From Candidatus Saccharimonadota bacterium (lineage in GTDB: Bacteria > Patescibacteriota > Saccharimonadia > Saccharimonadales > Saccharimonadaceae): a DNA stretch of 32,000 nucleotides. How positions within the stretch are numbered: the first letter of the stretch is position 1; every line of letters begins with the position of its first letter. The notes beneath the pieces are model-generated. The model did no database searches and had not been told where the DNA came from. It saw only the letters and a list, made by a program, of their open reading frames with translations. Location: NCBI GenBank assembly GCA_023898645.1, contig CP060232.1:90001-122000 (forward strand), given 5' to 3'. The position numbers and the translations under genes are program-made. Below are positions 2,452 to 31,441 of the stretch, one piece after another.

Positions 2452-2452
2452 C

Positions 2453-9715: not shown

Positions 9716-9716
9716 C

Positions 9717-11735: not shown

Positions 11736-12248
11736 ATGACACTGCAAGGGGTGGTAATTGCCGGTGCACTTGCAGCTGCGATATTGCTGCTGTTTGTTTT
11801 TTTGGTGCGCGTTTGGATTTTAGTTCGGCAGCTTAATACTTCCTTTGCGAAACTGGGGTACTTAGTACGAGAAGATGCAAAAAAGTACTTTGACGATGCG
11901 GCTGGCAAGATTGTAGATACAAATGAACAGTTCCAGGAAATGTATAAAAAAATCGTCATGGAAGGAACGCGTTCAGTACTCAACGAGAGCAGTACTATTA
12001 CCGAAAAGATTATGGTGGATGCTCACGGGCGAGCAAACAACGTCGTACTCGCAGCACGAACCGACGCCCAACAGATACTACAAGCTGCGCAGAAAGAGGC
12101 GGATATTCATGCAAATAGAACGCTTCAGCAAACCGGTGATGTCATAGGGTGGGTAATGTCGCAATATCTTGGTGAGGTATACTCCGTTGCTGATCACGAG
12201 GCCCTAATTGAAAAATTAGTAAAGAATTATACCGATGAGCACAGATAA
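11736..12248 (+). CDS. atpF: F-type ATP synthase subunit b-like (peripheral stalk)
   Basis: Single N-terminal TM ('VVIAGALAAAILLLFVFLV') followed by a long charged helix ('ARTDAQQILQAAQKEADIHANRTLQQ'). Sits immediately 5' of the delta and alpha genes. Starts 1 nt after the permease stop; GAGGAG lies 13 nt upstream. Confidence 0.65.
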   Translation: MTLQGVVIAGALAAAILLLFVFLVRVWILVRQLNTSFAKLGYLVREDAKKYFDDAAGKIVDTNEQFQEMYKKIVMEGTRSVLNESSTITEKIMVDAHGRANNVVLAARTDAQQILQAAQKEADIHANRTLQQTGDVIGWVMSQYLGEVYSVADHEALIEKLVKNYTDEHR

Positions 12249-12822
12249 TAAGCACACACATGTATCGCCAGAAGTACGGGGTTCAATCGGCCGCGAGATT
12301 ATGAGCGTGCTTAATGCCTGCACAATTAACATGTCTTCGGAGCAGACCCTCCGAGAATTACAGCTTACTGTTGAACGACTGACGTTTGCTAGTGAGAATA
12401 TAGGCGAGGACATGTCAATGACTGACGTGGATACTATCTTAGGGGGCGACGTATCTCCTGGCACTATGTCGTTTATTGCCTGGCTACATAAGCGAAACGC
12501 CATTCGCTTGTTGTTCGGAGAGAACGGGCGGATGCTGCTTTCGTTTTGCGTCAGGTACTATCGAAATGTGCAGCAGGTACGATGCAGTACGCCAATTCCT
12601 TTGCGAGAGTCGTTTCGTATAAAGCTACTAACACAATTACGTATATTGTATCCGGAACCGATAAACATCATATTTGAGACCGTACCCTCGCTTGTGGCGG
12701 GCTGTATCATCGATGATGGTCATAAGCGAGTTGACATGAGTTTACAGAGCAAGATACCAAAATTGGTTAGTCAGTACGTTGACGCCACTCGACCAGTTAG
12801 GACTGCGCCTCATGAATCCTAG
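12235..12822 (+). CDS. atpH: F-type ATP synthase subunit delta (OSCP)-like, divergent
   Basis: The C-terminal half parallels OSCP: 'FGENGRMLLS' versus E. coli 'MAENGRLNAL', and 'LVAGCIIDDGHKRVDMSLQSKIPKL' versus '[25 protein letters not shown]'. Overlaps atpF by 14 nt. Confidence 0.65.
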   Translation: MSTDNKHTHVSPEVRGSIGREIMSVLNACTINMSSEQTLRELQLTVERLTFASENIGEDMSMTDVDTILGGDVSPGTMSFIAWLHKRNAIRLLFGENGRMLLSFCVRYYRNVQQVRCSTPIPLRESFRIKLLTQLRILYPEPINIIFETVPSLVAGCIIDDGHKRVDMSLQSKIPKLVSQYVDATRPVRTAPHES

Positions 12823-14359
12823 TGTTGGTCGCGTTGAGTCTGTGCGCAGTGAGACGTGTGTCGTCAGTGGGCTAAATGGCGTAGGGCTGAGCAATGTCGT
12901 GACGTTTTCATCGGGGGCCACGGGTATTGTATTGGGGTTTGAGCACCAAACAGCACAAGTAGTAATGCTTGAAGCTTATGAGAAGGTCAAAAAGGGTGAT
13001 TTGGTACGTATAATTTCTCAGTACCCCGTGATTACCGTAGGCCAAAAATTACTCGGGCGGGTAATTGACCCTCTAGGACGACCTCTTGATGGACATGGTG
13101 ACATCGATACACTGGGTGCTGTGGTGCTACCGGTTGAAATTCCTGCGCGCCCCATCTTCCAGCGCGCAATCGTCGACAAACCCCTTCAGACTGGGTATAC
13201 GCTCGTTGACTCGCAAATACCGATTGGTCTTGGTCAGCGTGAGCTTTTGGTAGGTGAAAGCAAATCCGGGCAAGTCGATGTGGCAATAGACATCATATGT
13301 AATCAGGCTCGCCTTAAAACAGATCTTATCTGCGTATATGTTGCGATAGATGCGGAAGTGGCAGTAACGAAGCGTAACGTAGAACGACTTGAACAGACTG
13401 GGGCGTTAAAACAGACGGTGGTGTTGTTTGGTCGTACTGCATCTGCGGCATCACTTAACTACATCACCCCCATGGTAGGCATGTCGATTGCTGAATGGTT
13501 CATGACGCAAGGAAAAAACGTTCTGATTGTGTTTGACGACATGTCTCGACACGCAAAGGTATATCGACAGCTCTCTTTACTGTTGAACAGGCCTGCAAGC
13601 CGCGAGGCGTATCCAGGAGACATCTTTTATCTGCACTCTCGTTTGCTTGAACGATGCGGAGCGTTTAATGAGCATGCAGGCGGAGGGACGATTACCGCGT
13701 TACCTATCGTTGAAACATCAACAGAAGAAGTAACCGACTATATCACCACTAACCTTATGTCGATAACCGACGGTCACGTGCTGTTCCGACGAGCACTGGC
13801 AAACAAGGGCTTGCGCCCACCAATAGACAGTGGATTCTCTGTTTCGCGTATTGGTGGTCGTGTCCAATCGAAACTTATTCGGGAATTGTCCGATCAGCTA
13901 AAGGACATACTAGTACGATTTGGCGAGATTGAAAGATTCATTGCCTTTGGTACTGACCTCAATAGTGATTCGCTTGAGTTGTACAATTTGGGGTTACGCG
14001 CCAGGGCATTATTTGATCAGACTTCGGATGATTACTTTACGCCTCTACAGCAGGCACTACTGCTTTACTTTGTAACAAGCAAAAAGGTTTTGGAGTGGGA
14101 CCATCATCAGATGAGGCCGCTACGTACTCAGTTGCTAAAGTTTATGGTAATGCCACCATATGACAGGATGCTGACACCAAATATGCTACAGACATTTGAC
14201 AAGAGCGTGACCGATACTTTTGATGAATGTTTTAAAGATTTCATGAAGAACCCCGCAACACCTAAGCCTGCCGAAAAAGCACAGCGCCTTGTGGCTGAGA
14301 CCGAAACAATCAGTGGTATATTGCGTGAAAACGAGGATATGTTCCATGACAAAAATTGA
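12812..14359 (+). CDS. atpA: F-type ATP synthase subunit alpha, with degenerate P-loop
   Basis: 'LLGRVIDPLGRPLDGHG', 'PLQTGYTLVDSQIPIGLGQRELLVG', 'LIVFDDMSRHAKVYRQLSLLLNRPASREAYPGDIFYLHSRLLER', 'ITALPIVETSTEEVTDYITTNLMSITDGHV'. The P-loop reads GESKSGQV rather than GDRQTGKT. Start taken at ATG 12812 (MNPSVGRVESV...); the in-frame ATG at 12779 is an alternative. Confidence 0.9.
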   Translation: MNPSVGRVESVRSETCVVSGLNGVGLSNVVTFSSGATGIVLGFEHQTAQVVMLEAYEKVKKGDLVRIISQYPVITVGQKLLGRVIDPLGRPLDGHGDIDTLGAVVLPVEIPARPIFQRAIVDKPLQTGYTLVDSQIPIGLGQRELLVGESKSGQVDVAIDIICNQARLKTDLICVYVAIDAEVAVTKRNVERLEQTGALKQTVVLFGRTASAASLNYITPMVGMSIAEWFMTQGKNVLIVFDDMSRHAKVYRQLSLLLNRPASREAYPGDIFYLHSRLLERCGAFNEHAGGGTITALPIVETSTEEVTDYITTNLMSITDGHVLFRRALANKGLRPPIDSGFSVSRIGGRVQSKLIRELSDQLKDILVRFGEIERFIAFGTDLNSDSLELYNLGLRARALFDQTSDDYFTPLQQALLLYFVTSKKVLEWDHHQMRPLRTQLLKFMVMPPYDRMLTPNMLQTFDKSVTDTFDECFKDFMKNPATPKPAEKAQRLVAETETISGILRENEDMFHDKN

Positions 14360-15125
14360 TGGTCTACAACAAGAAATTCGTACGATGAAAGAGCTTGAGG
14401 ACCTTACAAATATGCTTGAGCAAACTGCAGCCCGTAACATTGCCGTAATGCGCACGGAAATTCTAGAAAGCCGACCGTTTTTTCAAGAATTTTGGCGCAT
14501 TTATGCAGTAATGAAACAGTTGACGCCGCCACCGCCTGAGGTAATTCATAGACAACTAGTGGTCGCCATCGGTATAGATTGGGGGATGCCAGGTAATTTG
14601 CTCCATCGAGTACTGGATGTTGCCGAGCAAACGTTTGAAGAGCACGGTGCGGATCTGATGTTGATTGGTAAAATGACCCATGCGCGGTTCAGGACTAATA
14701 CCGATCGTACGGTTCATACATTTTCGGCTCCTAAAAAATCATCACTTCGCGATATTGAACCTATCTATGCTCTTATTTCAAAATATGCACACACAACTTT
14801 CGTTTATCCACGTTTTGAAAGCCTCTCCAAACAAGTCGTCGAAACTAACTTCATAACAATAGGCGAAACCGCTGAGGAGCATAAAGCGAATGCGCAAAAT
14901 CGAGCAAAGGACGAAGTGGCGGCGAAGCGTTTTATCATTGAACCGAACCCTCAGGAAATTGCCAATTATATGAACCAGACTGTCGTTGGATTGTCGCTAT
15001 ACCACTATATTGCAGAGTCTATGCTTGCATACAGCGCCGCTCAAATGGTGGCAATGCGAGACTCGTACGATAACGCAAAAAACGAGTCAAAGGCATTGAG
15101 GTTAAAGTACCACAAGGCTCGTCGT

Positions 15126-16894
<1,769 letters not shown>

Positions 16895-18463: not shown

Positions 18464-19279
18464 ATGGAACAATCTCACGATTACAACTCGGAATTACCAT
18501 CACTAGTACTTGGTGGTGGAGGTCCCTTTGGCATTGCATTTGAATACGGCATATATGAGTCGCTGCAGGGCGCGGGAATTGATTTGGCGGATGCACAAAT
18601 GCTTGGTACATCAGCCGGTTCGTGGGTAGCAAGTTTCATCGCAACGGGTAGAGACTACTCTGACGTGGCTGACATACCGCAGATCAAAGTACCGAATTGG
18701 CAGCCGGGATTTTTGCAAGGTATTGCACGGGAAGTACTTGGCAACGACAGGGCGAGTAATGTTCGGACTATGGCATACAGACTTCCTTCAAGGGAGCATC
18801 CAATACCAGGGCCGCAAAAACTGAGGGGAATTGATCTGGCGGACATGGTTGCAGCTTCTTCGGCCGTGCCGGGCCTGTTTCGCCCTGTGCGAATCGGGAA
18901 CGAGTCTTACGTAGACGGCGGTGTTCGCTCGATTGTCTCTGCCGACGTAGCACCGAAATCACATAGAGTATTAGCCATTGCCGCCCTAGGCCAGCATTTA
19001 AAGCAACCAATTGGTCAGCACAAATTGGCAGTTGGGCCAGCGTTGGAATGGCAACTGCGACGTGAACTGAACAGCTGGAAGCAACGACATGGAGGCGAGG
19101 TGGCATATATACAGCCCAACGAAAAGATTGCCGGCATGGTTGAAGGTCCCGGCGATTTGTTTAATTTCGACATTGCACATAGGGTATACGACATGGCGCG
19201 AGAGCAGGGCGAAGAGGTTGTTGAGAGGTGGCGCGACATGGGTACTCTGGCATTATGGCTGACACGCCAGCCCATATAA
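18464..19279 (+). CDS. Patatin-like phospholipase
   Basis: Oxyanion 'LGGGGPFG', nucleophile elbow 'GTSAGS' (GxSxG), catalytic Asp motif 'YVDGGV'. RBS GGGAGGA lies 4-5 nt upstream of the ATG. Confidence 0.85.
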   Translation: MEQSHDYNSELPSLVLGGGGPFGIAFEYGIYESLQGAGIDLADAQMLGTSAGSWVASFIATGRDYSDVADIPQIKVPNWQPGFLQGIAREVLGNDRASNVRTMAYRLPSREHPIPGPQKLRGIDLADMVAASSAVPGLFRPVRIGNESYVDGGVRSIVSADVAPKSHRVLAIAALGQHLKQPIGQHKLAVGPALEWQLRRELNSWKQRHGGEVAYIQPNEKIAGMVEGPGDLFNFDIAHRVYDMAREQGEEVVERWRDMGTLALWLTRQPI

Positions 19280-19395: not shown

Positions 19396-20409
19396 ATGGA
19401 CCAAGACATATTGGCGCCCGAACAGGCAGAGAAAGACAACTACAAAGAAACCGACGTGTTTGCCTGGGCAAACAACATGCTGCAATACAAAGAAGATCTC
19501 AAGATTGATCTGTTTTTGATTAGCAAAAGCTACATACCGTTTAGGATTAAATTAGCCGACAGTTTACGGCAGCAATTAGAGCCACTCTTTATCGACGGGT
19601 TGTTGGAATATTTGTTTGAAGGTGCCGAGGAGGGTATGACAGTGCGTGGGTTTGAAGAAGCTGAGGCTGAGGCTGGTGTATTGCAGCGCACGCAGGTATA
19701 CAAAGTCGTGCACGCACGCGAAACGCTTCGCTGGATTAAGACGCAGGAACATGAGATCGAGACGTTCAACGACGACGAGCATGATTTCGGTCGCATGAAA
19801 GGCATGATCGCGCGGGTGAGCCACCCTGATATGAAACACGAAGTTTTCGTCGTAAAGGTGCTGCCACGCTCCAACGTCATGCAAGGCAAAGCAGGCTGGA
19901 TGGTCAAGAGCGGCAAGTTTGTACCGTTCGACGCCGAAGCCGCCGTGCGCATACCAGCCGACAATCAGCTGCTTATTATCGACCAAGATATGTACGTGTT
20001 TAGTCAGGCGCGCCTGAAGCAGATGTTTAGCTACGACGCCAAGGAAGCAATCATTGCCGAGAAAAAGGTCAAAGAAGTCAACGCTAACTTCCGACTGAGC
20101 TTCCCAGAGGGTCAGAATATGCAGACGCTGATTGAGGGCAAGCGAAGTATCATCAAAAAGCTACAAAAACTTGATACGACGGCCGTTAAGCAGGAGCAAC
20201 TACTAGAGCACGCCGAGGACTTGGGCATCGAAATGATGCAAGACGACACCGGCGCGATTATCATCATGGACGACAAAGATATGGGCAAGTTCGTCAATCT
20301 ACTCAATGACGACTATATGGAATCAGCACTGACGGGTCAGCGCTACGAGATCATCCAGAAAAAACTTCTGAAGATTGATGAAGATGACGCTGAGCCGGTC
20401 GCGCCCTAA
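19396..20409 (+). CDS. Hypothetical protein; resembles the DUF4868 (KwaB, Kiwa defence) family by pattern only
   Basis: 337 aa, soluble. 'IDLFLISKSYIPFRIKL', 'HEVFVVKVLPRSNVM', 'LLIIDQDMYVFSQARLKQMFSYD' and 'FVNLLNDDYMESALTGQRYE' recall the DUF4868 layout. No profile search was run. Confidence 0.4.
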   Translation: MDQDILAPEQAEKDNYKETDVFAWANNMLQYKEDLKIDLFLISKSYIPFRIKLADSLRQQLEPLFIDGLLEYLFEGAEEGMTVRGFEEAEAEAGVLQRTQVYKVVHARETLRWIKTQEHEIETFNDDEHDFGRMKGMIARVSHPDMKHEVFVVKVLPRSNVMQGKAGWMVKSGKFVPFDAEAAVRIPADNQLLIIDQDMYVFSQARLKQMFSYDAKEAIIAEKKVKEVNANFRLSFPEGQNMQTLIEGKRSIIKKLQKLDTTAVKQEQLLEHAEDLGIEMMQDDTGAIIIMDDKDMGKFVNLLNDDYMESALTGQRYEIIQKKLLKIDEDDAEPVAP

Positions 20410-20477: not shown

Positions 20478-20504
20478 ATGAGGCGCGTGGAATATGAAAA
20501 CTGA
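20478..20504 (+). CDS. Candidate 8-codon mini-ORF MRRVEYEN* (leader peptide, uORF or small precursor peptide)
   Basis: AGGTGG (20465-20470) lies 7 nt upstream of ATG 20478, the best SD in this intergenic region. The ORF ends in Asn-TGA and overlaps ATG 20494 of the next gene by 11 nt in another frame. It is too short to call statistically. Confidence 0.3.
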   Translation: MRRVEYEN

Positions 20505-21375
20505 CGGAATAGAGTCCAGGTTTGATTCCCATGAGCCTCCACGAACTGATAAGTATGACTATAGCTACTTTACCCCAGAGGAAAATCCTGACGGAGAGTT
20601 GCTTGCCAAGCAGATTCAAGCACAGAGTTACGTCAACATGCGGATTGTTCGCCCCGAAGGGTTAATTACGCTTGCGAATGGTGCGCAGATTATGGCCCCT
20701 TCCGCATCTAATCCATCGGGAGTTCCGTATGTCCCGATTGTCGGTAGTCGGGCTGAATATGCTCTTGGAATAGAAAAAGGAACGACCGATCTCAACCCGA
20801 TGACCGGCCGGCTAGTCGCTTGGAAAAAGCTCTATGCACCTTTAGACGCATTGCCGGCGTATCAATTCAGCAAAGACGTTCTTTGGTCAGAGGGAGAGCA
20901 GTACCTGCGGAGTGTCGAGGCGGATCCAGGCTGTGTTTTAGTAGAACCAGAAGCGCTCGGCAAGACAATAAACGCTGGTCGTGCAGTGGTTAAAGAGTTT
21001 ATACGAGCTGAGATACAGCGAGTATTGGGTAGGGGCGAAGTGTGGTTTATGGGACTTGTCGAAGCGACAGCATTTGAATCTTTTGTCCACAACTGGGGAC
21101 AGACCGCCGTAAAGCAAATTGGCCCGTCGAAACAAACGTTTCATCCACAGATGTGTAGCGGCATTGCGTTGGTGCCGACTGTTATGAATATCGACAGTTT
21201 TTACGATGACATGGCTTACGATATTTTGACACCAGGAAATAAATTTGCCGAACGACAATTAACTAACTTTGTCTACATGTCTGACGGTGTCAGTGACACC
21301 ACACTAGGGTCTGAGCTTGCTGAATTTCGAGTTTGGGCATGCAATTTAGCGAGAGCTATGGGAGGTACTTTGTGA
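20494..21375 (+). CDS. GNAT-fold acyltransferase-like protein of the LuxI / FeeM N-acyl amino acid synthase type (pattern-level call)
   Basis: The layout parallels autoinducer-synthase-like GNATs: N-terminal 'LLAKQIQAQSYVNMRIV', a middle 'GRLVAWKKLYAPLDALPAY', 'VLVEPEALGK', then 'EVWFMGLVEATAFESFVHNWGQTAVKQIGPSK...PTVMNIDSF'. CDS call ~0.8; the value given is for the functional call. Confidence 0.45.
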   Translation: MKTDGIESRFDSHEPPRTDKYDYSYFTPEENPDGELLAKQIQAQSYVNMRIVRPEGLITLANGAQIMAPSASNPSGVPYVPIVGSRAEYALGIEKGTTDLNPMTGRLVAWKKLYAPLDALPAYQFSKDVLWSEGEQYLRSVEADPGCVLVEPEALGKTINAGRAVVKEFIRAEIQRVLGRGEVWFMGLVEATAFESFVHNWGQTAVKQIGPSKQTFHPQMCSGIALVPTVMNIDSFYDDMAYDILTPGNKFAERQLTNFVYMSDGVSDTTLGSELAEFRVWACNLARAMGGTL

Positions 21376-22487
21376 ATTATCATGGCGATTCACTAGAGTA
21401 CTGGATGAAGCGTGAAGTAGTAGAGGCGCCGGAGTGGTCAGAACCTGAGTGTTATGATCCAAATAATGTGAGTGACAGGCGGGGTATGTACAGTCGTGTC
21501 GTCATGGGCGGCGCAAAAGTCCAGCGGAAGGTTGCTGCAATCGCCGAAGATCTCTTTGAGATGAAGCATCCTGACCAGAAAAACAATCAGACCGCACGCG
21601 AGCGCTTCGTCGAGCCGATTTCAGCCGAGGGCGATCGTTATGGTAAATGGTACTATTTTCCCTGGTCAAACCAGCTTGTGCAGTATCCCGACAGGGAGGA
21701 ACATCGTTTACTTTTAACGTTTCGCAACCGAGAACTGATTACTGCGGATGAACTGCGTAAGATTGGTTCCGCGACAACGGCGCATATAGGATTAAGTGTC
21801 GGATCGCACATACTTGAACAGACGTCTCATATGGCGCTAGGGGATAAAGTTATTTTAGCCGATCCAGATGTTATGTCTGTGCCAAATCTGAACCGAATTA
21901 ATGCCGGTATGCCAGAAGTGGGTATGCGCAAGACAGATGTTGCGGGTATTCGCTTGAGCGAGCTGAATCCATACGTTAAACAGGTACATCTTTTTGATGG
22001 CATAACGTCACAAAATGCTGAAGTAGTTGCCCGACATCACCCCGATTTGATATTTGAAGAAGTCGATCACATGCCAACGAAGATACTGATGCGTAAACTT
22101 GCGTATCGAGTGGGTGCTGCCTTGATTATGGCTACCGATACGGGTGACCTTACCATGATCGACGTGGAGCGGTATGATTTAGGTGATGTTAAGCCGTTTT
22201 TGGGTAGACTGACAACAAACGAGATGATGATGATCGAGGAAGCGAACCCGTCACCAGAGCAGACGGTGCGTCTGATTATAAAACTGATTGGTCTAGAGAA
22301 TATATCTATGCGCCTTGCACAGTCATTGGGGCAGATCGGCATCACACTAGGAGGGATAGCGCAGTTGGGTACGACGGCGTCGACTGGCGCCGCCTATGCA
22401 GCCGTTGCTGGTCGTGAAATATTACTCAAGAGAGGACCTACAACTGGCCGCTACAAGGTGTCTCCGCAAGAAGTGCTGCATCTGTGA
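21372..22487 (+). CDS. E1/ThiF-family adenylyltransferase with a ~130-aa N-terminal extension (MoeY/Rv1355c-like architecture)
   Basis: 'AHIGLSVGSHILEQ' (variant GxGxxG), 'VILADPDVMSVPNLNRINAG' (the D.D..sNLNRq signature of ThiF/MoeB/E1), 'VGMRKTDVAGIRLSELNPYV'. 'WYYFPWSNQLVQYPDREEHRLLLTFRNRELIT' precedes the Rossmann fold. GTG 21372 follows GGAGG (21361-21365) and forms a GTGA overlap with the upstream stop. ATG 21333 is an alternative. Confidence 0.8.
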   Translation: MNYHGDSLEYWMKREVVEAPEWSEPECYDPNNVSDRRGMYSRVVMGGAKVQRKVAAIAEDLFEMKHPDQKNNQTARERFVEPISAEGDRYGKWYYFPWSNQLVQYPDREEHRLLLTFRNRELITADELRKIGSATTAHIGLSVGSHILEQTSHMALGDKVILADPDVMSVPNLNRINAGMPEVGMRKTDVAGIRLSELNPYVKQVHLFDGITSQNAEVVARHHPDLIFEEVDHMPTKILMRKLAYRVGAALIMATDTGDLTMIDVERYDLGDVKPFLGRLTTNEMMMIEEANPSPEQTVRLIIKLIGLENISMRLAQSLGQIGITLGGIAQLGTTASTGAAYAAVAGREILLKRGPTTGRYKVSPQEVLHL

Positions 22488-22503
22488 AATAGTAGAGTTT
22501 CGT

Positions 22504-22532
22504 AAGCGCTATCAATAGCGCTTGCTTTTTTT
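22504..22532 (+). terminator. Rho-independent terminator
   Basis: AAGCGCTAT-CA-ATAGCGCTT is a perfect inverted repeat (effective 8-bp stem, 4-nt loop). It is followed by GC and T7, 17 nt after the E1-like stop. Confidence 0.75.
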
Positions 22533-22608: not shown

Positions 22609-23049
22609 ATGATTTTCTACGATCACGTAGATGAAATGGAGCTTTTCAACGATGCCATGGAAGCAAGTGGCATGGCATGGTGGCTGTTTGAACACCCGAC
22701 TGGATTAATTTTCTTCCACCCCAACAAGCTTAAGATGCTTGGTTACGACGCCAAGGATGCTGAGAAATTCGTACACATAAGTAAGTTTGTCGATTTGATG
22801 CACCCAGATGACATCGAATCTACAACGGGCGCCCTCGGTGCTTATTTAGAAGGCAAGACTGACGATTATCAGGCTGATTATCGTATGAAGACCAAGAACG
22901 GTGAGTACAAGCGCTTTTACGACCGTGGCAAGATTGTCGGCAAGAGACCAGACGGTCAGATCGCAGTCGCTGGGTTCGCTATGGATCTGACGCAGTCGAA
23001 ATTAATGCCACGCCCAGCGCAGACTACCGAGCTGTCGAATAAATCGTAG
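22609..23049 (+). CDS. Stand-alone PAS domain protein
   Basis: 'GMAWWLFEHPTGLIFFHPNKLKMLGYD', 'MHPDD', 'YRMKTKNGEYKRFYDRGKIV' match the PAS_3-type pattern. A strong purine-rich SD (AAGAGGAGAGGAAA) lies upstream. Confidence 0.85.
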   Translation: MIFYDHVDEMELFNDAMEASGMAWWLFEHPTGLIFFHPNKLKMLGYDAKDAEKFVHISKFVDLMHPDDIESTTGALGAYLEGKTDDYQADYRMKTKNGEYKRFYDRGKIVGKRPDGQIAVAGFAMDLTQSKLMPRPAQTTELSNKS

Positions 23050-23140: not shown

Positions 23141-25453
23141 ATGCCAAAACACAAAAAATTTCCACGATGGGCGTATACTTTGCTCTCCGCAATTATCGTT
23201 GTTGGTTGGGTAGCATTTGCTGGCATCAGTGGGCCTTATTTTGGAAAAATTAGCGATGTTTCCAGTACTGACCTGTCGACGTTTCTACCGAATAGTGCCG
23301 AAGCAACAAAGGTCAACGATCAACTAACAAAATTTAGCGATAAAAAAGCAATTCCAGTTATCGTCGTTTATACACACGACGACAAAAAGCTGACTAGTGA
23401 TGATTTGTCACGAATCTCCAGCGTTGATGAAAGCCTAGCCCAAGTAAAGGGAGTTACTGGCACAGTCTCTCAACCCATACAGTCAGACGACAAAAAAGCA
23501 GCCTTTGTCAGCGTGCCGCTTGCGAGCGACGCTGATTTCAACAGCGCCTTTCCGGCAATCAAACAAAAACTTGCAGATTCAAATCTGAAATTTTCATATG
23601 TACTTACAGGTCCGGCATCGCTTGCCCATGATTTACAGACAGCTTTTTCAGGTATCGACAGTACGCTACTGCTCGTTGCGCTTGGCGTCGTGTTCTTCAT
23701 TTTGTTGATTGTGTATCGATCGCCATTTTTGCCAATCATCGTTTTATTTACTGCAATGTCGGCTCTTTCGGTAGCCGTATTTTCGGTGTATCATTTGGCC
23801 GACGCAGGCGTTGTGCAGCTAAACGGGCAGGTACAGGGTATACTATTCATCCTTGTCATTGGAGCAGCGACCGACTACTCGCTACTGTACATTTCACGGT
23901 ATCGCGAAGAGCTTACCTTGCATCGTAAGACATGGGACGCCATGTGGGCAGCATTGAAATCCGCTTACGAACCGATTATTGCAGCCGGCGGTACGGTGAC
24001 TGCCGGACTGCTTTGCTTGCTGCTGTCTGATTTAAAGTCAAACCAGGCGCTTGGACCGGTCGGCAGCATTGGCGTCGCGTTTTCTGTAGTGGCAACTCTG
24101 ACGCTACTGCCGGCCTTGTTGTTGCTAGCGGGTAGGACTGCTTTTTGGCCACGACGCCCGAAATTCGTTGAGAAACAAGGCCGCGATGGCTACCTTCGGA
24201 ATCATCCGGCATGGGCGCGGGTTGGTGCACTGGTGAGGCGTCATCCACGCAGGGTGTGGGCGGCGTGTATAGTTGTCTTGCTTGTAGCTGTTGCGGGTGT
24301 TCCACAGCTAAAGGCTGATGGTGTCTCGCAGAGCGACATTGTTCTTGGTAAATCTGAAGCACGTGACGGGCAGGCGATTCTCGACGCGCATTTCCCGAGT
24401 GGATCAGGGTCACCAGCCTATGTGGTGGCAAGTCAGGACAAGCTCGATTCTGTCGTAAAGGTGCTTGATGCTGATAAGGGTGTCGCTTCCGTTTACGCGG
24501 TGGCAAATGGTGTTGAATCAGGCTCTATGCCTTTGGGTGGCGCTGCCGACACTGTGCTTAACAAGGTCAAGGAGCAGGTGAAACTTCAGCGTTATGATCA
24601 GATTTCGGCTATGCACAAACAGTTCGCCGTTCAGATGGCAGGAGTGCCGCAAGCCCAGATGGACGCTGCCTATATAGCTGCCGCTGCAAAACTACCGAGC
24701 GTTGATACGATTGCCAAGCAGGCGTATCCTTTTAAAAATGCTACTGTGAAAACCGTAGACGGTGAAGTACTTCTACAAGTTACATTATCTGACCCTGGAG
24801 CGTCACTCGCGGCTCGCGATTCGATTGTGCGACTACGCGACAGTGTCAAAAAGGTAGATGCTGGTGCCATCATAGGAGGTACGAGCGCATCACAGTATGA
24901 TACAAATCAGGCTGCACTTCGTGACATACGGGTAGTTATGCCAGCAATATTGATTGCAATTACATTAATACTAATGCTGCTTTTGCGCGCAATTGTCGCT
25001 CCACTTTTGCTCCTTCTGACAACCGTTTTGTCGTTTGGCGCGACTATGGGTATTGCTGCACTTGTCTTTAATAATTTGTGGAAATTCCCAGGAGCCGACC
25101 CGGCCGTGATTATCTTTGGCTTCGTGTTCTTGGTAGCGCTCGGCATTGATTACAATATATTCCTGATGACACGTGTCCGTGAAGAGACGATAAAGCACGG
25201 CGTGACAGAGGGAACTATAAAGGGGCTAGTTGTGACGGGCGGTGTGATTACTAGCGCCGGTATCGTCTTGGCTGCGACATTCGCATCGCTGAGTGTAATC
25301 CCCATTTTGTTCCTAGCTGAAATCGCATTTATCGTCACCTTTGGTGTGCTACTCGATACCATCATCGTGAGGTCATTGCTCGTACCTGCGTTGACACTCG
25401 AAATCGGTCGGCTTATGTGGTGGCCGTCTAAGTTGTGGCGAAAAAGCAAGTAA
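23141..25453 (+). CDS. MMPL-family (RND superfamily) membrane transporter
   Basis: 770 aa, with two 6-TM bundles each preceded by a large extracytoplasmic domain. 'GAATDYSLLYISRYREEL' and 'LGIDYNIFLMTRVREE' are MMPL hallmarks. Confidence 0.9.
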   Translation: MPKHKKFPRWAYTLLSAIIVVGWVAFAGISGPYFGKISDVSSTDLSTFLPNSAEATKVNDQLTKFSDKKAIPVIVVYTHDDKKLTSDDLSRISSVDESLAQVKGVTGTVSQPIQSDDKKAAFVSVPLASDADFNSAFPAIKQKLADSNLKFSYVLTGPASLAHDLQTAFSGIDSTLLLVALGVVFFILLIVYRSPFLPIIVLFTAMSALSVAVFSVYHLADAGVVQLNGQVQGILFILVIGAATDYSLLYISRYREELTLHRKTWDAMWAALKSAYEPIIAAGGTVTAGLLCLLLSDLKSNQALGPVGSIGVAFSVVATLTLLPALLLLAGRTAFWPRRPKFVEKQGRDGYLRNHPAWARVGALVRRHPRRVWAACIVVLLVAVAGVPQLKADGVSQSDIVLGKSEARDGQAILDAHFPSGSGSPAYVVASQDKLDSVVKVLDADKGVASVYAVANGVESGSMPLGGAADTVLNKVKEQVKLQRYDQISAMHKQFAVQMAGVPQAQMDAAYIAAAAKLPSVDTIAKQAYPFKNATVKTVDGEVLLQVTLSDPGASLAARDSIVRLRDSVKKVDAGAIIGGTSASQYDTNQAALRDIRVVMPAILIAITLILMLLLRAIVAPLLLLLTTVLSFGATMGIAALVFNNLWKFPGADPAVIIFGFVFLVALGIDYNIFLMTRVREETIKHGVTEGTIKGLVVTGGVITSAGIVLAATFASLSVIPILFLAEIAFIVTFGVLLDTIIVRSLLVPALTLEIGRLMWWPSKLWRKSK

Positions 25454-25481: not shown

Positions 25482-26207
25482 TTACGCGTAGCGCGTGATA
25501 ACGAACATGAGGAGGGTGCCAAGTACTGTTAGTAGCAAAGTCACTTTTGACGATTTATGCTCGTGTGCTTGTGGCAAGATGTCACTCGCACCGATGTAGA
25601 GTAGAAAGCCGGCAAAGAAGCCGAGATAGAGAACTAATCCAGAGTCTGACAATGTGAATAGAAATGTCGATGCAACACCGAGGACGGGTGCGAGTGCATC
25701 GACGAGCAAAAACTTTAATGTTCGTCGGATTGAATTCTTGTGATTGAGCATGAGGCTGACGGTGTTGAGCCCATCGGCAAAATCGTGACCAATGACGGCA
25801 ATCGCGACGGCAATACCAACGGTTGGACTTACCTGAAAGCCCAGGCCTATGCCGACTCCGTCAAGGAAGCTGTGACCACTGAGTGCCAAGGCTGACAGGA
25901 TGCCGACTGATGGATGGCGGTGCTGACCATACTCGTTTTCATGCGCGTGGTGTATGAGAAGGTATTTTTCGCTGATATGAAATAGCAAAAAACCGACCGT
26001 GAGTGCAATCATGGCTGGTGTCGGGTCGAGGTTTTGTTCATGGATAATGTTAAAAAGCTCCGGCAAAATGTCGAAGGCAATGACGCCTAATATGATGCCG
26101 GCAGTGAAGCCGAGTAGCTTGGGGATGTGTTTTTTATGTCGGATACCGACAATGCCACCGGCAAAGGTTGAAAGAAATGTTGCGATACTGAGAAGTATTG
26201 GAGTCAT
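25482..26207 (-). CDS. zupT: ZIP-family divalent metal (zinc) transporter, ZupT-like
   Basis: Multi-TM protein with a His-rich loop 'HHAHENEYGQHRH', plus 'SGHSFLDGVGIG' and 'IGHDFADGL'. Start taken at ATG 26207 (MTPILLSIATFLSTFAGG). The longer ORF reaching 26285 would run through the shared operator and the zur start. Confidence 0.85.
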   Translation of the reverse strand: MTPILLSIATFLSTFAGGIVGIRHKKHIPKLLGFTAGIILGVIAFDILPELFNIIHEQNLDPTPAMIALTVGFLLFHISEKYLLIHHAHENEYGQHRHPSVGILSALALSGHSFLDGVGIGLGFQVSPTVGIAVAIAVIGHDFADGLNTVSLMLNHKNSIRRTLKFLLVDALAPVLGVASTFLFTLSDSGLVLYLGFFAGFLLYIGASDILPQAHEHKSSKVTLLLTVLGTLLMFVITRYA

Positions 26208-26233
26208 TGGATAATCATAGACATAGGCACTAT

Positions 26234-26274
26234 ATATTGCAAATATGTCGCAATTTGTGGTAAATTTGCAATAT
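26234..26274. promoter_or_regulatory. 11-bp perfect inverted repeat ATATTGCAAAT-N19-ATTTGCAATAT in the zupT/zur divergent region (candidate Zur/Fur operator)
   Basis: Read directly: arms at 26234-26244 and 26264-26274. The left arm contains the -35-like TTGCAA of a minus-strand promoter (TTGCAA-N17-TATGAT, then 6 nt to the zupT ATG). The right arm overlaps the zur start codon. Confidence 0.5.
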
Positions 26275-26686
26275 GAATGAGACACTTTCTAGATTGAGCG
26301 ACATATTAAAGAAAGATGGCTATAGCCTGACGAAACCGCGACGAGCGGTCTTTCAATTCTTATTAGGTAAAGAGCCCGTTACGATGAGTGACATTACTAA
26401 GGTACTGATGCCGACGGTTGATCGTGCTAGTGTGTATCGAACTGTCGCATTGTTTCAAGAGCTGGGTATTATACAGCGTCATAACGTAGGTTGGAAATAT
26501 ACGATTGAGCTAAGTGATACCTTTTCTGAACATCATCACCACATAACATGCATTCGTTGTGGAAAGGTGACGTCAATTAACGAAAAGGCATTGGAACGAT
26601 CAGTAGAAGATCTGGCTCGTCAGTATGGCTACCGGGCAACGGGGCACCAAATCGAGCTTCAGGGTTACTGTGCGGCGTGCGCATGA
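26273..26686 (+). CDS. zur: Fur-family metalloregulator, probably Zur
   Basis: Winged-helix 'TKPRRAVFQFLLGKEPVTMSDI...RASVYRTVALFQELGII', 'HHHHITCIRCGKV' and a C-terminal 'CAAC' (CxxC...CxxC zinc site). It is divergent from a ZIP transporter. Confidence 0.85.
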   Translation: MNETLSRLSDILKKDGYSLTKPRRAVFQFLLGKEPVTMSDITKVLMPTVDRASVYRTVALFQELGIIQRHNVGWKYTIELSDTFSEHHHHITCIRCGKVTSINEKALERSVEDLARQYGYRATGHQIELQGYCAACA

Positions 26687-26687
26687 A

Positions 26688-27503
26688 TTAATTTTTTTTG
26701 TCGGTTTGTTTGTGTTGACGATTTCTGATGGTGGTCACGATTTTGCCGACGAGCGCAGCTATTAGCATAATGGCACCTGCCCACGTGACGAACACGAAGT
26801 ATTGTCCGAGGGCAGACCCAATGTCGTGAGTGAGTATTGGTGGCAGTGAACTAAAGCTGCCTTTGCCGTCATGAGGTGGGTTGAGAAGAAGCAGCGAAAA
26901 CACAGTACCTGGCAAGCTAATGAAAAAGAGAAGTAGCCCGAGGTTCGACAAGCGCCCCCAACCCGCACTGAAATATGCGACGGCCGCTGCGAACAGTACA
27001 GACAGTATGTAAAAGATAGTTAACGGTAACTGAAGTGCGAGGTGTGTACTCGAAGTGAAAAGTCGTAGAAGTGAGGCCTGATTAATGAATTGCTCCCTTT
27101 GCTTTTCGGTCTTTGTAAATTGGTCGGCCGCACCTTCGACTCCTTTGTCATAAATGATTTTTGTTAAGGGCAAAAATACTTTGAGTGATATTTCGTTTGG
27201 CGTCAGTTTCAGGTCGGCCTTCGTTATGACGACACTTTGCATATACGGAATAGGGTGAATGGCTCCGCCGGCTTGGTCGATCTTCTTTTCGGCCTCCTTT
27301 ATGTCGATGGAGCCGTCGCGAATGAAATTCATGCCGATGACACTGGCGACGATTTCCGGCGCACGGTCCTTGCTGGTTAGTACAGACGCCACCGACAGTA
27401 AGAGGCATGCGATGAGCGATAGCGAAAAGAGGATTCCAAAGATCCATTTTGCGTCGACATGCCAATAAGGTCGGACAGTTGGAAATAGTTTCACGTATGC
27501 CAT
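26688..27503 (-). CDS. Integral membrane protein of unknown function
   Basis: About 4 TM helices with a ~130-aa extracytoplasmic loop. Start taken at ATG 27503 (MAYVKLFPTV...). The longer ORF reaching 27635 would overlap the corA promoter and start. Confidence 0.6.
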   Translation of the reverse strand: MAYVKLFPTVRPYWHVDAKWIFGILFSLSLIACLLLSVASVLTSKDRAPEIVASVIGMNFIRDGSIDIKEAEKKIDQAGGAIHPIPYMQSVVITKADLKLTPNEISLKVFLPLTKIIYDKGVEGAADQFTKTEKQREQFINQASLLRLFTSSTHLALQLPLTIFYILSVLFAAAVAYFSAGWGRLSNLGLLLFFISLPGTVFSLLLLNPPHDGKGSFSSLPPILTHDIGSALGQYFVFVTWAGAIMLIAALVGKIVTTIRNRQHKQTDKKN

Positions 27504-27539
27504 TATAAAGCATAAGCGTTCACTGTCTGAAATCATATC

Positions 27540-27548
27540 TGTTACAAT
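27540..27548 (+). promoter_or_regulatory. Extended -10 element TGTTACAAT, candidate corA promoter
   Basis: Sequence is atcTGTTACAATagg, 32 nt upstream of the corA ATG. AAGGAG SD at 27569-27574. A 6-bp inverted repeat, GTTACA (27541-27546) and TGTAAC (27559-27564), spans the -10 and early leader. Confidence 0.35.
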
Positions 27549-27579
27549 AGGGGTGAAATGTAACCAATAAGGAGCGCCT

Positions 27580-28494
27580 ATGCTTTCGTATCTTCGCTCA
27601 ACACAGTACAGGCCGGTAATCAAGCAGCGAGACACGCTGCAGCCCGGTTGTTGGATCCGATCCGAGCGACCTACCGATGACGAACAGAGTCAACTAGTAG
27701 AGCTGGGCATTGATCAGGACTTATTGGCCGATGCGCTCGATCCGCACGAGGTTCCACGTGTTGAACTGGAGGATGGCTGGACGTACTTTCTAACGCGGCT
27801 GCCAGATACCGATGACGATTTTAACGATTTCACGACGCCGATCGTGTTTGCTTTAGGTCCGCAATATATTGTGACTGTCAGTCGTGATAGCTTAGGTCGC
27901 TTGTGGCAGCCGTTTATCGACAACGTCAAGGCTCCGACGACACAAAAAACGAAGTTATTCATGATGATGCTTGAGGCCGTTATCCGGCAATACGAAACGC
28001 GGGTTGCTTCAATCAACCGCCAGATGCGCGCGACTACCAGTGACGTTCGCTCGCTCGGTTCTAAAGACATCATGACGATTACCGAGTATGAACGAAAGCT
28101 TAATGATTACCTTGACGCGCTTCAACCAACAAATTCAGCGCTAGAGAAGATATTGGGCGGTCGTCTGCTACCACTTTACGAAGATGACCGCGACTTGGTC
28201 GAAGACTTGTCGATTGAATTTGAGCAGCTGATTGCTCGTTGCAAAAGTCTTTTGCGTACCATCACGAACGTTCGTGACTCATACCGTGCCGTTATGGACA
28301 CGCGGCTAAACGAAACAATTCGTTTGCTTACTGTTATTACGCTGGCATTTACAGTTCCCATGATGATATCTGGTATATACGGCATGAACGTTTCCATACC
28401 GGGCGAGCATGAACCCTATGCTTTTTGGATAATCATCATCGTTAGCATTGTGCTGTCGGGCTCGCTTGCACTTTATTTCCTTCGCAAAAAATAA
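27580..28494 (+). CDS. corA: CorA-family magnesium/cobalt transporter
   Basis: Two C-terminal TMs with 'YGMNV' (the GMN signature) between them. A long acidic cytoplasmic N-domain. SD AAGGAG lies 5 nt upstream. Confidence 0.9.
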   Translation: MLSYLRSTQYRPVIKQRDTLQPGCWIRSERPTDDEQSQLVELGIDQDLLADALDPHEVPRVELEDGWTYFLTRLPDTDDDFNDFTTPIVFALGPQYIVTVSRDSLGRLWQPFIDNVKAPTTQKTKLFMMMLEAVIRQYETRVASINRQMRATTSDVRSLGSKDIMTITEYERKLNDYLDALQPTNSALEKILGGRLLPLYEDDRDLVEDLSIEFEQLIARCKSLLRTITNVRDSYRAVMDTRLNETIRLLTVITLAFTVPMMISGIYGMNVSIPGEHEPYAFWIIIIVSIVLSGSLALYFLRKK

Positions 28495-28579: not shown

Positions 28580-31441
28580 TTGGATAGTATGAGTCACCAA
28601 ACAGTCAACAACGTGTTTCTTGATTGCCAACAAGCGGCGGATTATTTGAGTGTCAGTGTTAAAACAATTCGACGATGGGCTCAATCGGGTAAATTAAAGG
28701 GTAAAAAAGTCGGTTCTCGAGGCGACTGGCGTTTTACGCACGACCAACTTGATCAACTGGTGCACGGGCAAGAAGACGATTACGAAATTGTTAAACAGTT
28801 TTTGCATCAGCACGCATCTGACATAGAACGATTGGCTATCGAAAAATATCACACCTACCTCAGCGAAATTAATCTCTCGAGTAATAATATTGGGAAAAAC
28901 AGTCGCTTTCATGTAGAAATAATTAAATCGCTTGCAGACAATTTGAAAAATGAAGCGGAAGGAATGAAGAAGTTTGACAAGTTAGGTAGACGGCTTGCTA
29001 CATCTTCACTAGAAAAGGGATTGACCGTTCAAGAAGTGCACGACGGTATAAGGTTCCTGAAGCGGGCTATGTGGGAAATGGTGGAAAATTCAAAAGAGAA
29101 TAAACACCTGACGCTTGCTGACATCTATTCATTGAAAAAGATTTTTTCTACGTATAAAGATATCCTTACCTCAAAAATATTAATTGCATATCAGGACAAT
29201 TATCAGCAGGCACAAAAGGCACTGGAATATGGTGAAGAAAAATTTGCCAAGATGTTTCATGTTAGTCCTGTGGCTATGACGTTGAGCCGGGCTTCAGACG
29301 GGGAAATTATTGACGTAAATGAATGCTATCTCGAAATGATGGATTGCAAACGATTAGACGTCGTAGGGCACAGTGTTGTCGAGCTGGACGGAGAAAGTGG
29401 TCACATTGCTTCTAAGCGACTGCAACAACTCAAAGCGATCGGGTACGCAAAAAAGCGAACGGAATTTGAAACAGAAATAGTAACAAAAACAGGAATGCGC
29501 AGACGAATTCGAGGCGCGTATATAGCCTTGAAGATTAACGGTGAAAAACACATTATTACGTCTCACTTTGACGTTACGGAGCAATTAAAAGTCGAAGGAC
29601 GAAACCAATATCTTGCGGCGCTGACGACTAACATTGCCGATGCCGTGGTTAGCCTTGATAACAAGCACAACGTAGTCTCGTGGAATAAAGGTGCCGAGAA
29701 GCTTTATGGCTGGAAAAAAGAGGAAGTTATAGGGAAAAAACTTTCAAGCTTATTGCATCAAAGGCCAGTAAGCGGGATTACCCTAAAAGAGCTTCGACAA
29801 GTCGTAGCCGACAAAGGTGTTTGGCGCGGTGAGTCTGTTCATCGTAGGAAGGACGGCTCGTCTGTAGACGTAAACACGTCGGCCGCATCTATAAAAGATG
29901 AAAACGGTAAGATTATTGGTCGAGTTGCAGTGTATCGCGACATTAGTGCTCGCAAGCAGGCCGAGCGTTCGCTGGCAGAACGTGAAACGCGATATCGTCT
30001 GCTGTTTGATTCGATTGCTGCAGGTTTTTGTGTGGTTGAAGTGTTAGAAAACAAACAAGGAAAGGCGTATGATTACCGTTTTCTTGAAGTTAACCCTGCT
30101 TACGAGAAAATGGTCGGAGTTTCTAATATGCAAGGCAAAACTTTACAACAGTTAACCCCAGCTGTATCTGATAAATGGGTAGATGTAGCCGCGGGTGTTG
30201 CAGTGACAGGCAAAGACAGTCACGTTACCAGTTATTCGAGCTCAGTAGATAAATGGTTTGATGTGCACGTAATGAAGGTAGGAACGGGGAATGATAAAAC
30301 GGTAGCTCTTTTGGTTCGGGATGTCACCGAACATAAAAACATCGAGCAAGAGCGAGAAGTATCTATGAAAAAGATTATTAGTACACTTGAATCTATCAGT
30401 GATGCGTTTTTTCAGGTAGACGAAGAAGGCAATATCGTGCTAGTGAACGATGAATTTGTTCGCATGTCACGCATATCTAGGAAAAAGGCCCTTAGTAGTA
30501 ATATAAAAAACGTGTTTTCTAGCGAAAGCTGGTTCCCGAAAAGGTATGAAATGTTTCAAAAGGTTATGGCGACAGGGCGGTCGGTGCACTATGTTGATTA
30601 TTATGAGCGAAGGAAAATATGGGTTGATGTCCGAGCGTACCCTACGGAAGGTGGGGTGTCGTGGTTTATCAAAGATATAACTCAACAAAAAGTTGCTGAA
30701 GAAAAACAAATAATGCTGACAAAGCTGTCTTTGGAGCGCGAAGAGCTGATTAAAATTGGTAGAGTTAAAGACGAATTTATCGGAATCGCCTCGCACCAAT
30801 TGCGTACTCCAGCCACGGCCGTCAAGCAATATATAGGCATGTTGCTTGCTGGTTTTGGCGGCACTTTGAACGACGACCAAAGACAGTATCTGGAGACGGC
30901 ATATGCAAGCAACGAACGCCAGATAAAGCTGATTAACGACTTACTAAAAACGGCACAAATCGATGCGGACACATATTCACTAAGTCGAAGTACACAGCAC
31001 ATTGCACCACTGCTTAAAAGTGCGGTTTTGTCGCACAAGCCTTACCTAGATAATCGACAACAGATTGTTGTCGTGAAGGATCAAAGTGACGGAGCAGAAG
31101 CAGATATCGACCCTATAGAAATAGATCTTGTTTTTGCAAATCTGCTAGAGAATGCCAGTAAATATAGTCCTAAAAAAAGTAAGATTACAGTAGCACTACA
31201 ACGCGAAGCAGACGTTCTTCGTATATCATTCTCAGACGAAGGTATTGGTATTCGCAAAGAAGACCAGGGCAAGATTTTTGACAAATTTACGCGAGTGCAC
31301 AATGAGCATTCCGACGCAGTGAGTGGCACTGGCCTGGGACTTTACTGGGTCAGGCAAATCGTACAAATGCATGGCGGTACGGTGACCGTGTCGTCAAGAT
31401 TACACAAAGGTTCAACCTTTACGGTAACGCTGCCGTTATGA
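28580..31441 (+). CDS. Cytoplasmic sensor histidine kinase with N-terminal excisionase/MerR-type HTH, a helical module, ~4 PAS domains, HisKA and HATPase_c
   Basis: HTH 'LDCQQAADYLSVSVKTIRRWAQSGKLKGKKVG'. PAS cores include 'VVSWNKGAEKLYGWKKEEVIGKKL...HRRKDGSSVDVNTSAASIKDENGKIIG'. H-box 'IASHQLRTPATAV', N-box 'LLENASKYSP', G-boxes 'DEGIGI' and 'GTGLGLYWV'. No TM segment. TTG 28580 lies 5 nt after GAGG; ATG 28589 is an alternative. Confidence 0.92.
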   Translation: MDSMSHQTVNNVFLDCQQAADYLSVSVKTIRRWAQSGKLKGKKVGSRGDWRFTHDQLDQLVHGQEDDYEIVKQFLHQHASDIERLAIEKYHTYLSEINLSSNNIGKNSRFHVEIIKSLADNLKNEAEGMKKFDKLGRRLATSSLEKGLTVQEVHDGIRFLKRAMWEMVENSKENKHLTLADIYSLKKIFSTYKDILTSKILIAYQDNYQQAQKALEYGEEKFAKMFHVSPVAMTLSRASDGEIIDVNECYLEMMDCKRLDVVGHSVVELDGESGHIASKRLQQLKAIGYAKKRTEFETEIVTKTGMRRRIRGAYIALKINGEKHIITSHFDVTEQLKVEGRNQYLAALTTNIADAVVSLDNKHNVVSWNKGAEKLYGWKKEEVIGKKLSSLLHQRPVSGITLKELRQVVADKGVWRGESVHRRKDGSSVDVNTSAASIKDENGKIIGRVAVYRDISARKQAERSLAERETRYRLLFDSIAAGFCVVEVLENKQGKAYDYRFLEVNPAYEKMVGVSNMQGKTLQQLTPAVSDKWVDVAAGVAVTGKDSHVTSYSSSVDKWFDVHVMKVGTGNDKTVALLVRDVTEHKNIEQEREVSMKKIISTLESISDAFFQVDEEGNIVLVNDEFVRMSRISRKKALSSNIKNVFSSESWFPKRYEMFQKVMATGRSVHYVDYYERRKIWVDVRAYPTEGGVSWFIKDITQQKVAEEKQIMLTKLSLEREELIKIGRVKDEFIGIASHQLRTPATAVKQYIGMLLAGFGGTLNDDQRQYLETAYASNERQIKLINDLLKTAQIDADTYSLSRSTQHIAPLLKSAVLSHKPYLDNRQQIVVVKDQSDGAEADIDPIEIDLVFANLLENASKYSPKKSKITVALQREADVLRISFSDEGIGIRKEDQGKIFDKFTRVHNEHSDAVSGTGLGLYWVRQIVQMHGGTVTVSSRLHKGSTFTVTLPL

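Follow-up and report, generated by a model that had tools for sequence, protein, structure and literature searches.

Three systems that make N-acyl oxazolones have been described, namely OxzAB (bioRxiv 10.1101/2020.06.11.147165), TyzACB (PMC10404671) and TrzAS (PMC12856293). According to the published biochemistry, TrzA, TyzA and OxzA N-acylate aromatic amino acids, and TrzS, TyzB and OxzB use ATP to cyclise the products. TrzAS corresponds to Rv1356c/Rv1355c, and Rv1355c (MoeY) is itself TrzS; when the oxidase of the system is disabled, a saturated cyclised species forms (PMC12856293). The authors who characterised the N-acyl oxazolones regard their physiological role as a major unresolved question (PMC12856293). 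Here, a two-gene unit was analysed within a 32,000-nucleotide stretch of a Candidatus Saccharimonadota genome (contig CP060232.1, positions 90,001 to 122,000, forward strand), which is referred to as the window. The first gene encodes a protein of 293 amino acids (aa), here called X, and the second encodes a 371-aa E1/ThiF-like protein, here called E1.

The pair of X and E1 resembles OxzAB, TyzACB and TrzAS in combining an N-acyl amino acid synthase with an ATP-dependent ThiF-like cyclase, and the kind of pathway is already described. An earlier note, made from the letters of the window, had taken the combination for an undescribed pathway. This was wrong, because E1 is matched by the Rv1355c family over its cyclase half and is 31% identical to a TrzS orthologue of Nocardia. 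What that note had observed was confirmed, and its interpretation was partly supported, as it had been right about the folds and the coupling and in suggesting an acyl amino acid.

Sequence and Structural Analysis of the E1-Like Cyclase

The ThiF domain of E1 was detected by Pfam at residues 122–263 (5.8e-12). The NCBIfam model NF005901, "Rv1355c family protein", matched at 2.7e-53 over profile positions 39–339 of 722, compared with 8.4e-9 for the next-best ThiF-type model, and the scores on the ThiF/MoeB models were far under the cut-off. The orthologue mentioned above is a Nocardia farcinica protein that itself reaches 949 bits on NF005901, and its BLASTP alignment covered residues 86–369 of E1 (E = 1e-31). 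An adenylating enzyme of the MoeY type, as the earlier note had proposed, was therefore recovered. The two ThiF/E1 motifs that it had pointed out, "GLSVGS" (residues 140–145) and "DPDVMSVPNLNR" (residues 164–175), were both recovered, and 22 relatives show no variation at most of their positions. The invariant residues of this set are G140/S142/G144, D164, D166, N172, N174, R175, K187 and D232, with GxSxG and NxNR as invariant patterns; no Cys is conserved across the 22 sequences. D232 is probably equivalent to D217 of TrzS, the adenylation Asp. With its adenylation residues intact, E1 is a cyclase of the TrzS/TyzB/OxzB type, and homology places it, as a putative adenylating enzyme of the ThiF kind, among the small-molecule cyclases; a FeeM-fold protein appears to be its obligatory partner.

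The AlphaFold model of E1 had a predicted local distance difference test score (pLDDT) of 89, and its Foldseek matches included AclA (9egb, the top match), ThiF and MoeB; a literature search on AclA gave nothing usable. When the E1 family profile was compared with the PDB, the TcdA cyclodehydratases were the best match (1.9e-16). The N-terminal 120 residues were modelled confidently, and the Foldseek alignments spanned the ThiF core only. The earlier note had pointed to an N-terminal domain of ∼130 aa in the place where MccB and other peptide-modifying E1-like enzymes have a substrate clamp. No evidence for a clamp was obtained from these comparisons, and the NF005901 alignment begins at residue 51, which places the N-terminal extension within the conserved cyclase region of the Rv1355c family.

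As an alternative, E1 could have a peptide or protein as its substrate and activate it at the C-terminus, either as in ribosomally synthesised and post-translationally modified peptides of the MccB/PaaA type or as in ubiquitin-like systems. A tailoring or self-immunity function would in that case fall to the GNAT acetyltransferase, as it does to MccE in microcin C clusters. The N-terminal extension of ∼120 aa, the presence of PaaA at rank 40 of the Foldseek list and weak PADLOC E1–E2 matches are in keeping with this, as is an 8-codon mini-ORF, MRRVEYEN (20478–20504), that lies just upstream of X and ends in Asn, as MccA does. However, the PADLOC matches were 1e-5 or weaker and spanned only 60–150 residues of the Rossmann core, MccB fell outside the top 50 Foldseek matches, and no other ThiF model suits E1 nearly as well as the small-molecule cyclase family. 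X, moreover, is like FeeM and not like the GNATs of the RimL/MccE type, and in several genomes it forms the N-terminal part of a fusion with E1. The mini-ORF, which overlaps the start of X in another frame, has no counterpart in any of 21 related loci and is therefore probably due to chance. It was rejected as an MccA-like precursor, and the part that the earlier note had given it in the module lapsed, leaving a peptide substrate unsupported. Pfam surveys of the window neighbours returned no E2, JAB, ubiquitin-like, ThiS/MoaD, thiamine or molybdopterin gene, in agreement with that note, and no exporter gene of the major facilitator superfamily was found near the pair. E1 consequently differs from the sulfur-carrier and ubiquitin-like E1 enzymes (ThiF, MoeB, Uba, CBASS Cap2, Bil/Bub), both in these neighbours and in its lack of a conserved Cys, and we consider a peptide or protein substrate very unlikely.

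Structure Prediction of Protein X

X gave no match in Pfam, NCBIfam, PADLOC or the PDB sequences, either as a single sequence or as a 64-sequence profile, and neither Autoind_synth nor Acetyltransf was matched in Pfam or NCBIfam at E values up to 1. Its 36 close relatives are 45–67% identical, and those that carry an organism name are all from Saccharibacteria. When 1.84 billion representatives were searched exhaustively by profile, an X family of 191 proteins was obtained, fusions of X and E1 included, to which a third homologue search with a diverse X alignment added few further proteins. X hence stands for a family of ∼190 representative clusters that has no Pfam or NCBIfam model and whose members are all annotated "hypothetical".

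The AlphaFold2 model of X, based on a 35-sequence alignment, had a pLDDT of 92.3. In the Foldseek comparison with the PDB, FeeM (2g0b) came first (E = 9.7e-5, target TM 0.68, query TM 0.45), and almost all of the top matches below it were GNAT acyltransferases. The model points to a FeeM-like GNAT fold, the fold being what supports the GNAT assignment. The earlier note had predicted a FeeM/LuxI-type GNAT fold and had named a GNAT profile match as its test; the fold was recovered by AlphaFold and Foldseek, and the sequence-profile match did not materialise. FeeM is also the closest structural relative of TyzA (PMC10404671). Judged by its fold and context, X is a predicted N-acyl amino acid synthase, and such a FeeM-fold synthase would lie directly upstream of the cyclase and be coupled to it. 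In the X family, a 578-aa protein (P0271) carries an N-terminal class I S-adenosylmethionine-dependent methyltransferase domain and a C-terminal X-family domain (residues 327–573), a fusion that hints at methylated products in some relatives.

Conservation of the Pair Across Related Loci

To define the relatives of the pair, one genome per species was scanned with the E1 alignment, which yielded 197 relatives, and 80 loci were kept. The loci were annotated with hidden Markov models (HMMs) built in this analysis, and the counts given here refer to 84 loci, 28 with X and 56 without. Two architectures were distinguished. Type 1 comprises the 28 X-containing loci (25 non-redundant), almost all of them from Saccharibacteria, with an E1 at least ∼37% identical to that of the window. 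X adjoins E1 or is fused to it in 25/25 non-redundant loci, the two being fused in five (L007, L008, L016, L025 and L029) and reversed in order in two (L019 and L027). The X–E1 junctions in the relatives are overlaps or gaps of at most ∼30 nt. About a dozen proteins of the X family have a fusion length of 637–713 aa, and a C-terminal ThiF domain was confirmed by Pfam in four. X and E1 are functionally linked and their pairing is not due to chance; the earlier note's view of two translationally coupled genes that are conserved as neighbours proved correct.

Type 2 comprises 56 loci from many phyla of the Candidate Phyla Radiation (CPR), including Wolfe-, Kaiser-, Magasanik-, Yanofsky-, Lipton- and Lloydbacteria, Paceibacterota and others, with an E1 that is 30–35% identical to that of the window. 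The gene upstream encodes a PaaK/F390-synthetase-like ligase of ∼505 aa (7e-20) in 50/56 loci, and the gene downstream a protein of ∼353 aa that matches the C-terminal flavin-dependent oxidase (FDO) half of the Rv1355c family (6.7e-47) in 48/56. The ligase was considered as a divergent X and rejected, as the two are unrelated. The cassette seen in L031–L084 (for example, L048:4365–9751) consists of the ligase, a TrzS-type cyclase (∼375 aa), the flavin oxidase and a seven-transmembrane (7TM) kinase (∼545 aa), and is often located just 3′ of dnaK-dnaJ. It resembles an oxazolone pathway with a predicted adenylate-forming ligase in place of the GNAT.

The distribution of the oxidase separates the two types. 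No FDO (by HMM) or PaaK-like gene was found within 3 kb of any of the 28 type 1 loci, whereas an oxidase lies within this distance in 48 of the 56 loci without X, and X and the oxidase are therefore mutually exclusive. A nitroreductase domain was likewise not detected in any window ORF of at least 100 aa, over the whole 32 kb, so that a flavin-dependent oxidase of the nitroreductase superfamily is neither fused nor adjacent to the pair. The window could still hold part of an ordinary split system of the TrzAS/TyzACB kind, with the flavin oxidase of a full unsaturated oxazolone pathway encoded elsewhere in the genome. The three TyzACB enzymes are indeed separate proteins (PMC10404671), and five Saccharibacteria-labelled metagenome-assembled genomes (L045, L050, L060, L073 and L076) carry this oxidase type beside the cyclase. 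The mutual exclusion argues against it, as does the adjacent or fused oxidase of the published systems (PMC12856293), and we regard this explanation as improbable.

Some further arrangements of cyclase-family genes were recorded. In two Mycobacterium sp. loci (L020:5854–10019 and L021:5959–10015), a stand-alone TrzS-type cyclase, 39% identical to that of the window and with neither X nor an oxidase, is directly followed by an MMPL transporter of ∼1000 aa; L020 also has a PaaK-like gene upstream. A Streptomyces plasmid (L087:4068–6982) encodes a 622-aa protein in which an unknown N-terminal domain of ∼280 aa precedes a TrzS-type cyclase (NF005901, 1.6e-118), followed by a KAS III gene. The N-terminal half was tried as an X relative and rejected as unrelated, and the fusion adds one more uncharacterised architecture to the cyclase family. 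In Rhodococcus qingshengii plasmids (L085:3850–4632 and L090:2794–3576, both minus strand), a TrzA-like gene is divergent from an Rv1355c-family gene and adjoined by a GGDEF gene; it is annotated as hypothetical and matches the Nocardia one at E = 1e-44.

Signalling Context of the Pair

A histidine kinase was found downstream of the cyclase on the same strand in 70/84 loci, and upstream of it in 0/84. In type 1, a polytopic-membrane histidine kinase lies directly 3′ (within 1.5 kb) in 16 of the 25 non-redundant loci, often with one or two single-domain response regulators in divergent orientation upstream. The first 330 residues of the type 1 kinases contain 7–9 hydrophobic (transmembrane) segments and match the type 2 kinases by HMM (1e-17 to 1e-35). 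The membrane region of the L048 kinase is HisKA_7TM in Pfam, and the type 1 kinases carry an extra GAF domain. As judged by these profile matches, the kinases beside both architectures share a homologous polytopic-membrane N-terminal domain.

A highly conserved PAS_3 protein of 137–146 aa follows E1 directly in L001/L002, L005, L006, L007 and L008 (phmmer E = 1e-64 to 1e-71), and in L007 and L008 the PAS gene is accompanied by a 7TM kinase 2–2.5 kb further on. The nearest kinase in the window (28580–31441) is of a cytosolic helix-turn-helix (HTH)-PAS type, unlike the 7TM kinases. In this 953-aa protein, a DNA-binding domain at the N-terminus (MerR/HTH_17) is joined to several PAS domains and membrane segments are not predicted, an unusual combination of sensor and DNA-binding architecture in one protein. 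It comes after a CorA gene, as do the kinases in L001, L005 and L006. No mention of Patescibacteria or of kinases in connection with oxazolones was found in the searchable literature.

Proposed Mechanism

In the mechanism that we propose, X would transfer an acyl group from acyl-CoA or acyl-ACP onto the α-amino group of an amino acid, as its fold and context suggest, and so produce an N-acyl amino acid. E1 would then adenylate the carboxylate of this intermediate with ATP, as expected from its homology to TrzS, TyzB and OxzB, and attack by the amide oxygen would release AMP and close a 5(4H)-oxazolone (azlactone) ring. Lacking a flavin oxidase as partner, the pathway would leave the ring saturated at Cα/Cβ and give a reactive and hydrolytically labile small molecule. 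By analogy with the described systems, we infer that the product is an N-acyl oxazolone. It is on balance probable that X and E1 make an N-acyl amino acid and cyclise it to a saturated, labile oxazolone, with a signal as the most likely function of the product; this last step is the least secure. A signal is suggested because the module nearly always adjoins a polytopic-membrane kinase and response regulators, or a PAS protein in the subclade of the window. The earlier note had left a choice between an acylated amino-acid signal and a peptide product, and the former comes close to the mechanism given here. More speculatively, the product or its hydrolysis product might be sensed by the PAS protein in the window and by the 7TM kinase in the relatives.

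The conserved signalling genes can also be read in another way. X and E1 might make no diffusible product and might instead covalently modify or regulate the PAS protein, the kinase or the response regulator, or the adenylate or azlactone might serve as acyl donor for a cellular or host nucleophile. The synteny with the kinase is tight across the two architectural types, no exporter is conserved, and saturated azlactones are good acylating agents. Such a role is, however, without precedent in the characterised family, and the conserved part of the kinase is a polytopic membrane domain that is typical of ligand sensing (HisKA_7TM). We hold this alternative to be unlikely.

Several points weigh against the saturated oxazolone signal. 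An oxidase is part of every characterised system, and we know of no FDO-less system that has been shown to release an oxazolone. The saturated oxazolone ring is unstable and is destroyed by acid (PMC12856293), and the oxidase could be encoded elsewhere in the ∼1.1-Mb genome. Saccharibacteria are not known to synthesise fatty acids, which makes the acyl donor a weak point of the mechanism. The acyltransferase role of X is predicted from a modelled fold whose Foldseek score is modest, and no GNAT profile matches the protein. X also has no detectable sequence similarity to the TrzA-like proteins of Nocardia and Rhodococcus (hhalign probability 0.2), although remote homology is still possible, as the 64-sequence X profile was set against a TrzA profile of three sequences. 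Both the Nocardia record and the Rhodococcus plasmids from which these TrzA-like proteins were taken have them next to Rv1355c-family genes. With regard to the receptor, a 7TM kinase was not found anywhere in the 32-kb window and is also out of reach in L001/L002, L005 and L006 of the window's subclade, and a strong terminator stands between E1 and the PAS gene in the window.

It is a tentative extension of the oxazolone mechanism that the TrzS-type cyclase operons of Patescibacteria are signal-synthase/receptor cassettes, built in two architectures, with the oxazolone (for the pair of the window, a short-lived saturated azlactone) as the ligand of the 7TM kinase or of the PAS protein in the window. 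If so, they would provide a cell–cell or host-sensing system for epibiotic bacteria and would answer what bacterial oxazolones are for. The kinase 3′ of the cyclase and its shared sensor domain are the clearest genomic hint so far that oxazolones are signals with a dedicated receptor. The conservation of this signalling context across Patescibacteria makes the question of oxazolone function testable. A GNAT and cyclase without an oxidase would further be the first natural system predicted to end at a saturated azlactone, and would show that ultra-small, host-dependent bacteria with very few biosynthetic pathways retain this one.

Locus Layout and Neighbouring Genes

The features of the two-gene unit and its immediate neighbours are listed in Table 1. 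The ORF coordinates, the GGAGG, the GTGA overlap and the strong terminator are all present as the earlier note had reported them. The two ORFs overlap by 4 nt, and the GGAGG sits 6 nt 5′ of the GTG. The longest ORF of the second gene begins at a TTG (21333); the GTG start gives the 371-aa product, which is identical to a public protein (P0037) annotated as a ThiF family adenylyltransferase, and the resulting N-terminus agrees with the aligned E1 relatives. Horizontal transfer of the pair was considered and rejected, as the GC content is uniform (0.47–0.49 across the pair and the window).

Table 1. Features of the X and E1 unit and its downstream neighbours in the window.
Feature	Position	Strand	Details
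X, 293-aa protein with FeeM-like GNAT fold, predicted N-acyl amino acid synthase	20494–21375	+	ATG start
E1/ThiF-like ATP-dependent cyclase, 371 aa, homologue of the N-terminal half of TrzS/Rv1355c, without oxidase domain	21372–22487	+	GTG start
Coupling junction	21361–21375	+	GGAGG 21361–21365; GTG 21372–21374 overlaps the X stop TGA 21373–21375
Intrinsic terminator closing the two-gene unit	22502–22532	+	10-bp stem 22502–22525 with 5 GC pairs, 4-nt loop, T-run to ∼22532
Single-domain PAS_3 protein, 146 aa, candidate sensor, immediate downstream neighbour	22609–23049	+	Pfam PAS_3 8.9e-14
MMPL-family transporter that might export a lipid product (weak link)	23141–25453	+	Pfam MMPL 1.5e-104

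Export of a lipid product by an MMPL transporter is hinted at by the MMPL gene two genes downstream of the pair, by the MMPL genes of L020/L021 and by mmpL9 beside tyz; this neighbour is not conserved in L001, L005 and L006, the relatives closest to the window.

Directly upstream of the pair are genes for a patatin-like phospholipase (18464–19279, 271 aa) and a KwaB-like DUF4868 protein (19396–20409, 337 aa; Pfam 2e-11; NCBIfam KwaB 2.9e-12, well under the cut-off). These two may form an uncharacterised defence pair. X and E1 could belong with them to an anti-phage defence island, and the patatin/KwaB-like order does recur in L001, L005 and L006, with a helicase between the two pairs in L001. 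Most X and E1 loci, however, lack both genes and carry a response regulator and a kinase instead; X has no PADLOC match, E1 has weak core matches only, and no KwaA-like gene accompanies the patatin/KwaB-like pair. A defence island is most improbable and was rejected, because the patatin and KwaB-like genes accompany the pair only in the closest relatives of the window.

Further from the unit, the window contains a metal-homeostasis cluster (25482–28494) with a ZIP transporter (minus strand), a Fur-family regulator, a 315-aa protein without a Pfam match (minus strand) and a CorA Mg2+ transporter. Near the start of the window (40–11734), genes for a Big_1/invasin-like protein of 803 aa and a Kelch/fn3/purple-acid-phosphatase-N repeat protein of 2420 aa precede those for an ABC ATPase and a MacB/FtsX-type permease, and this region probably constitutes a giant surface-protein locus. 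At the C-terminus of the 803-aa ORF is a weak ATP-synt_C match (8.8e-5), just ahead of the F-type ATP synthase genes (11736–16670).

Comparison With Known Systems

Among solved structures, TcdA, the tRNA t6A cyclodehydratase, is the closest relative of E1 by profile, and it also catalyses an ATP-driven cyclisation of an N-acylated amino-acid carboxylate, that of N-carbamoyl-threonine (PMC12596934). It differs from E1 in acting on tRNA, in lacking the N- and C-terminal extensions of the Rv1355c type and in having no GNAT partner. The FeeM/LuxI-type synthases share with X the fold for which FeeM is the best structural match; X differs in lacking the Autoind_synth and Acetyltransf matches, in being ∼110 residues longer and in always being paired with an adenylating cyclase.

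OxzAB of Pseudoalteromonas rubra (de Rond et al., bioRxiv 10.1101/2020.06.11.147165) likewise joins an N-acyltransferase and a ThiF-domain enzyme, and uses acyl-CoA and an amino acid to make a small-molecule oxazolone. OxzB is a ThiF–nitroreductase fusion, whereas the fusions in the window's family join the acyltransferase to ThiF. In TyzACB (Rv2336/Rv2337c/Rv2338c; N-acyl tyrazolones; Grigg et al. 2023, PMC10404671), the acyltransferase and the cyclase are separate proteins as in the window, TyzA has the same closest structural relative as X, and an MMPL transporter gene is near, as mmpL9 flanks tyz in M. tuberculosis. The oxidase TyzC has no equivalent in the window, and TyzB (318 aa) belongs to another ThiF subcluster than TrzS.

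TrzAS of M. tuberculosis (N-acyl tryptazolones; Kleetz et al. 2025, PMC12856293) has, like the window, an acyltransferase followed by a ThiF-like cyclase on one strand. E1 is homologous in sequence to the cyclase half of TrzS and conserves its adenylation Asp, and signalling genes are near in both, those of M. tuberculosis being genes for cyclic di-GMP turnover. In contrast to TrzAS, the host of the window is of the CPR/Saccharibacteria type and not an actinobacterium, with PAS, kinase and response-regulator genes as neighbours. With no oxidase nearby, an X without detectable sequence similarity to TrzA, fusions of X to E1 in five related loci and kinase or PAS neighbours, the locus is a variant of this known pathway.

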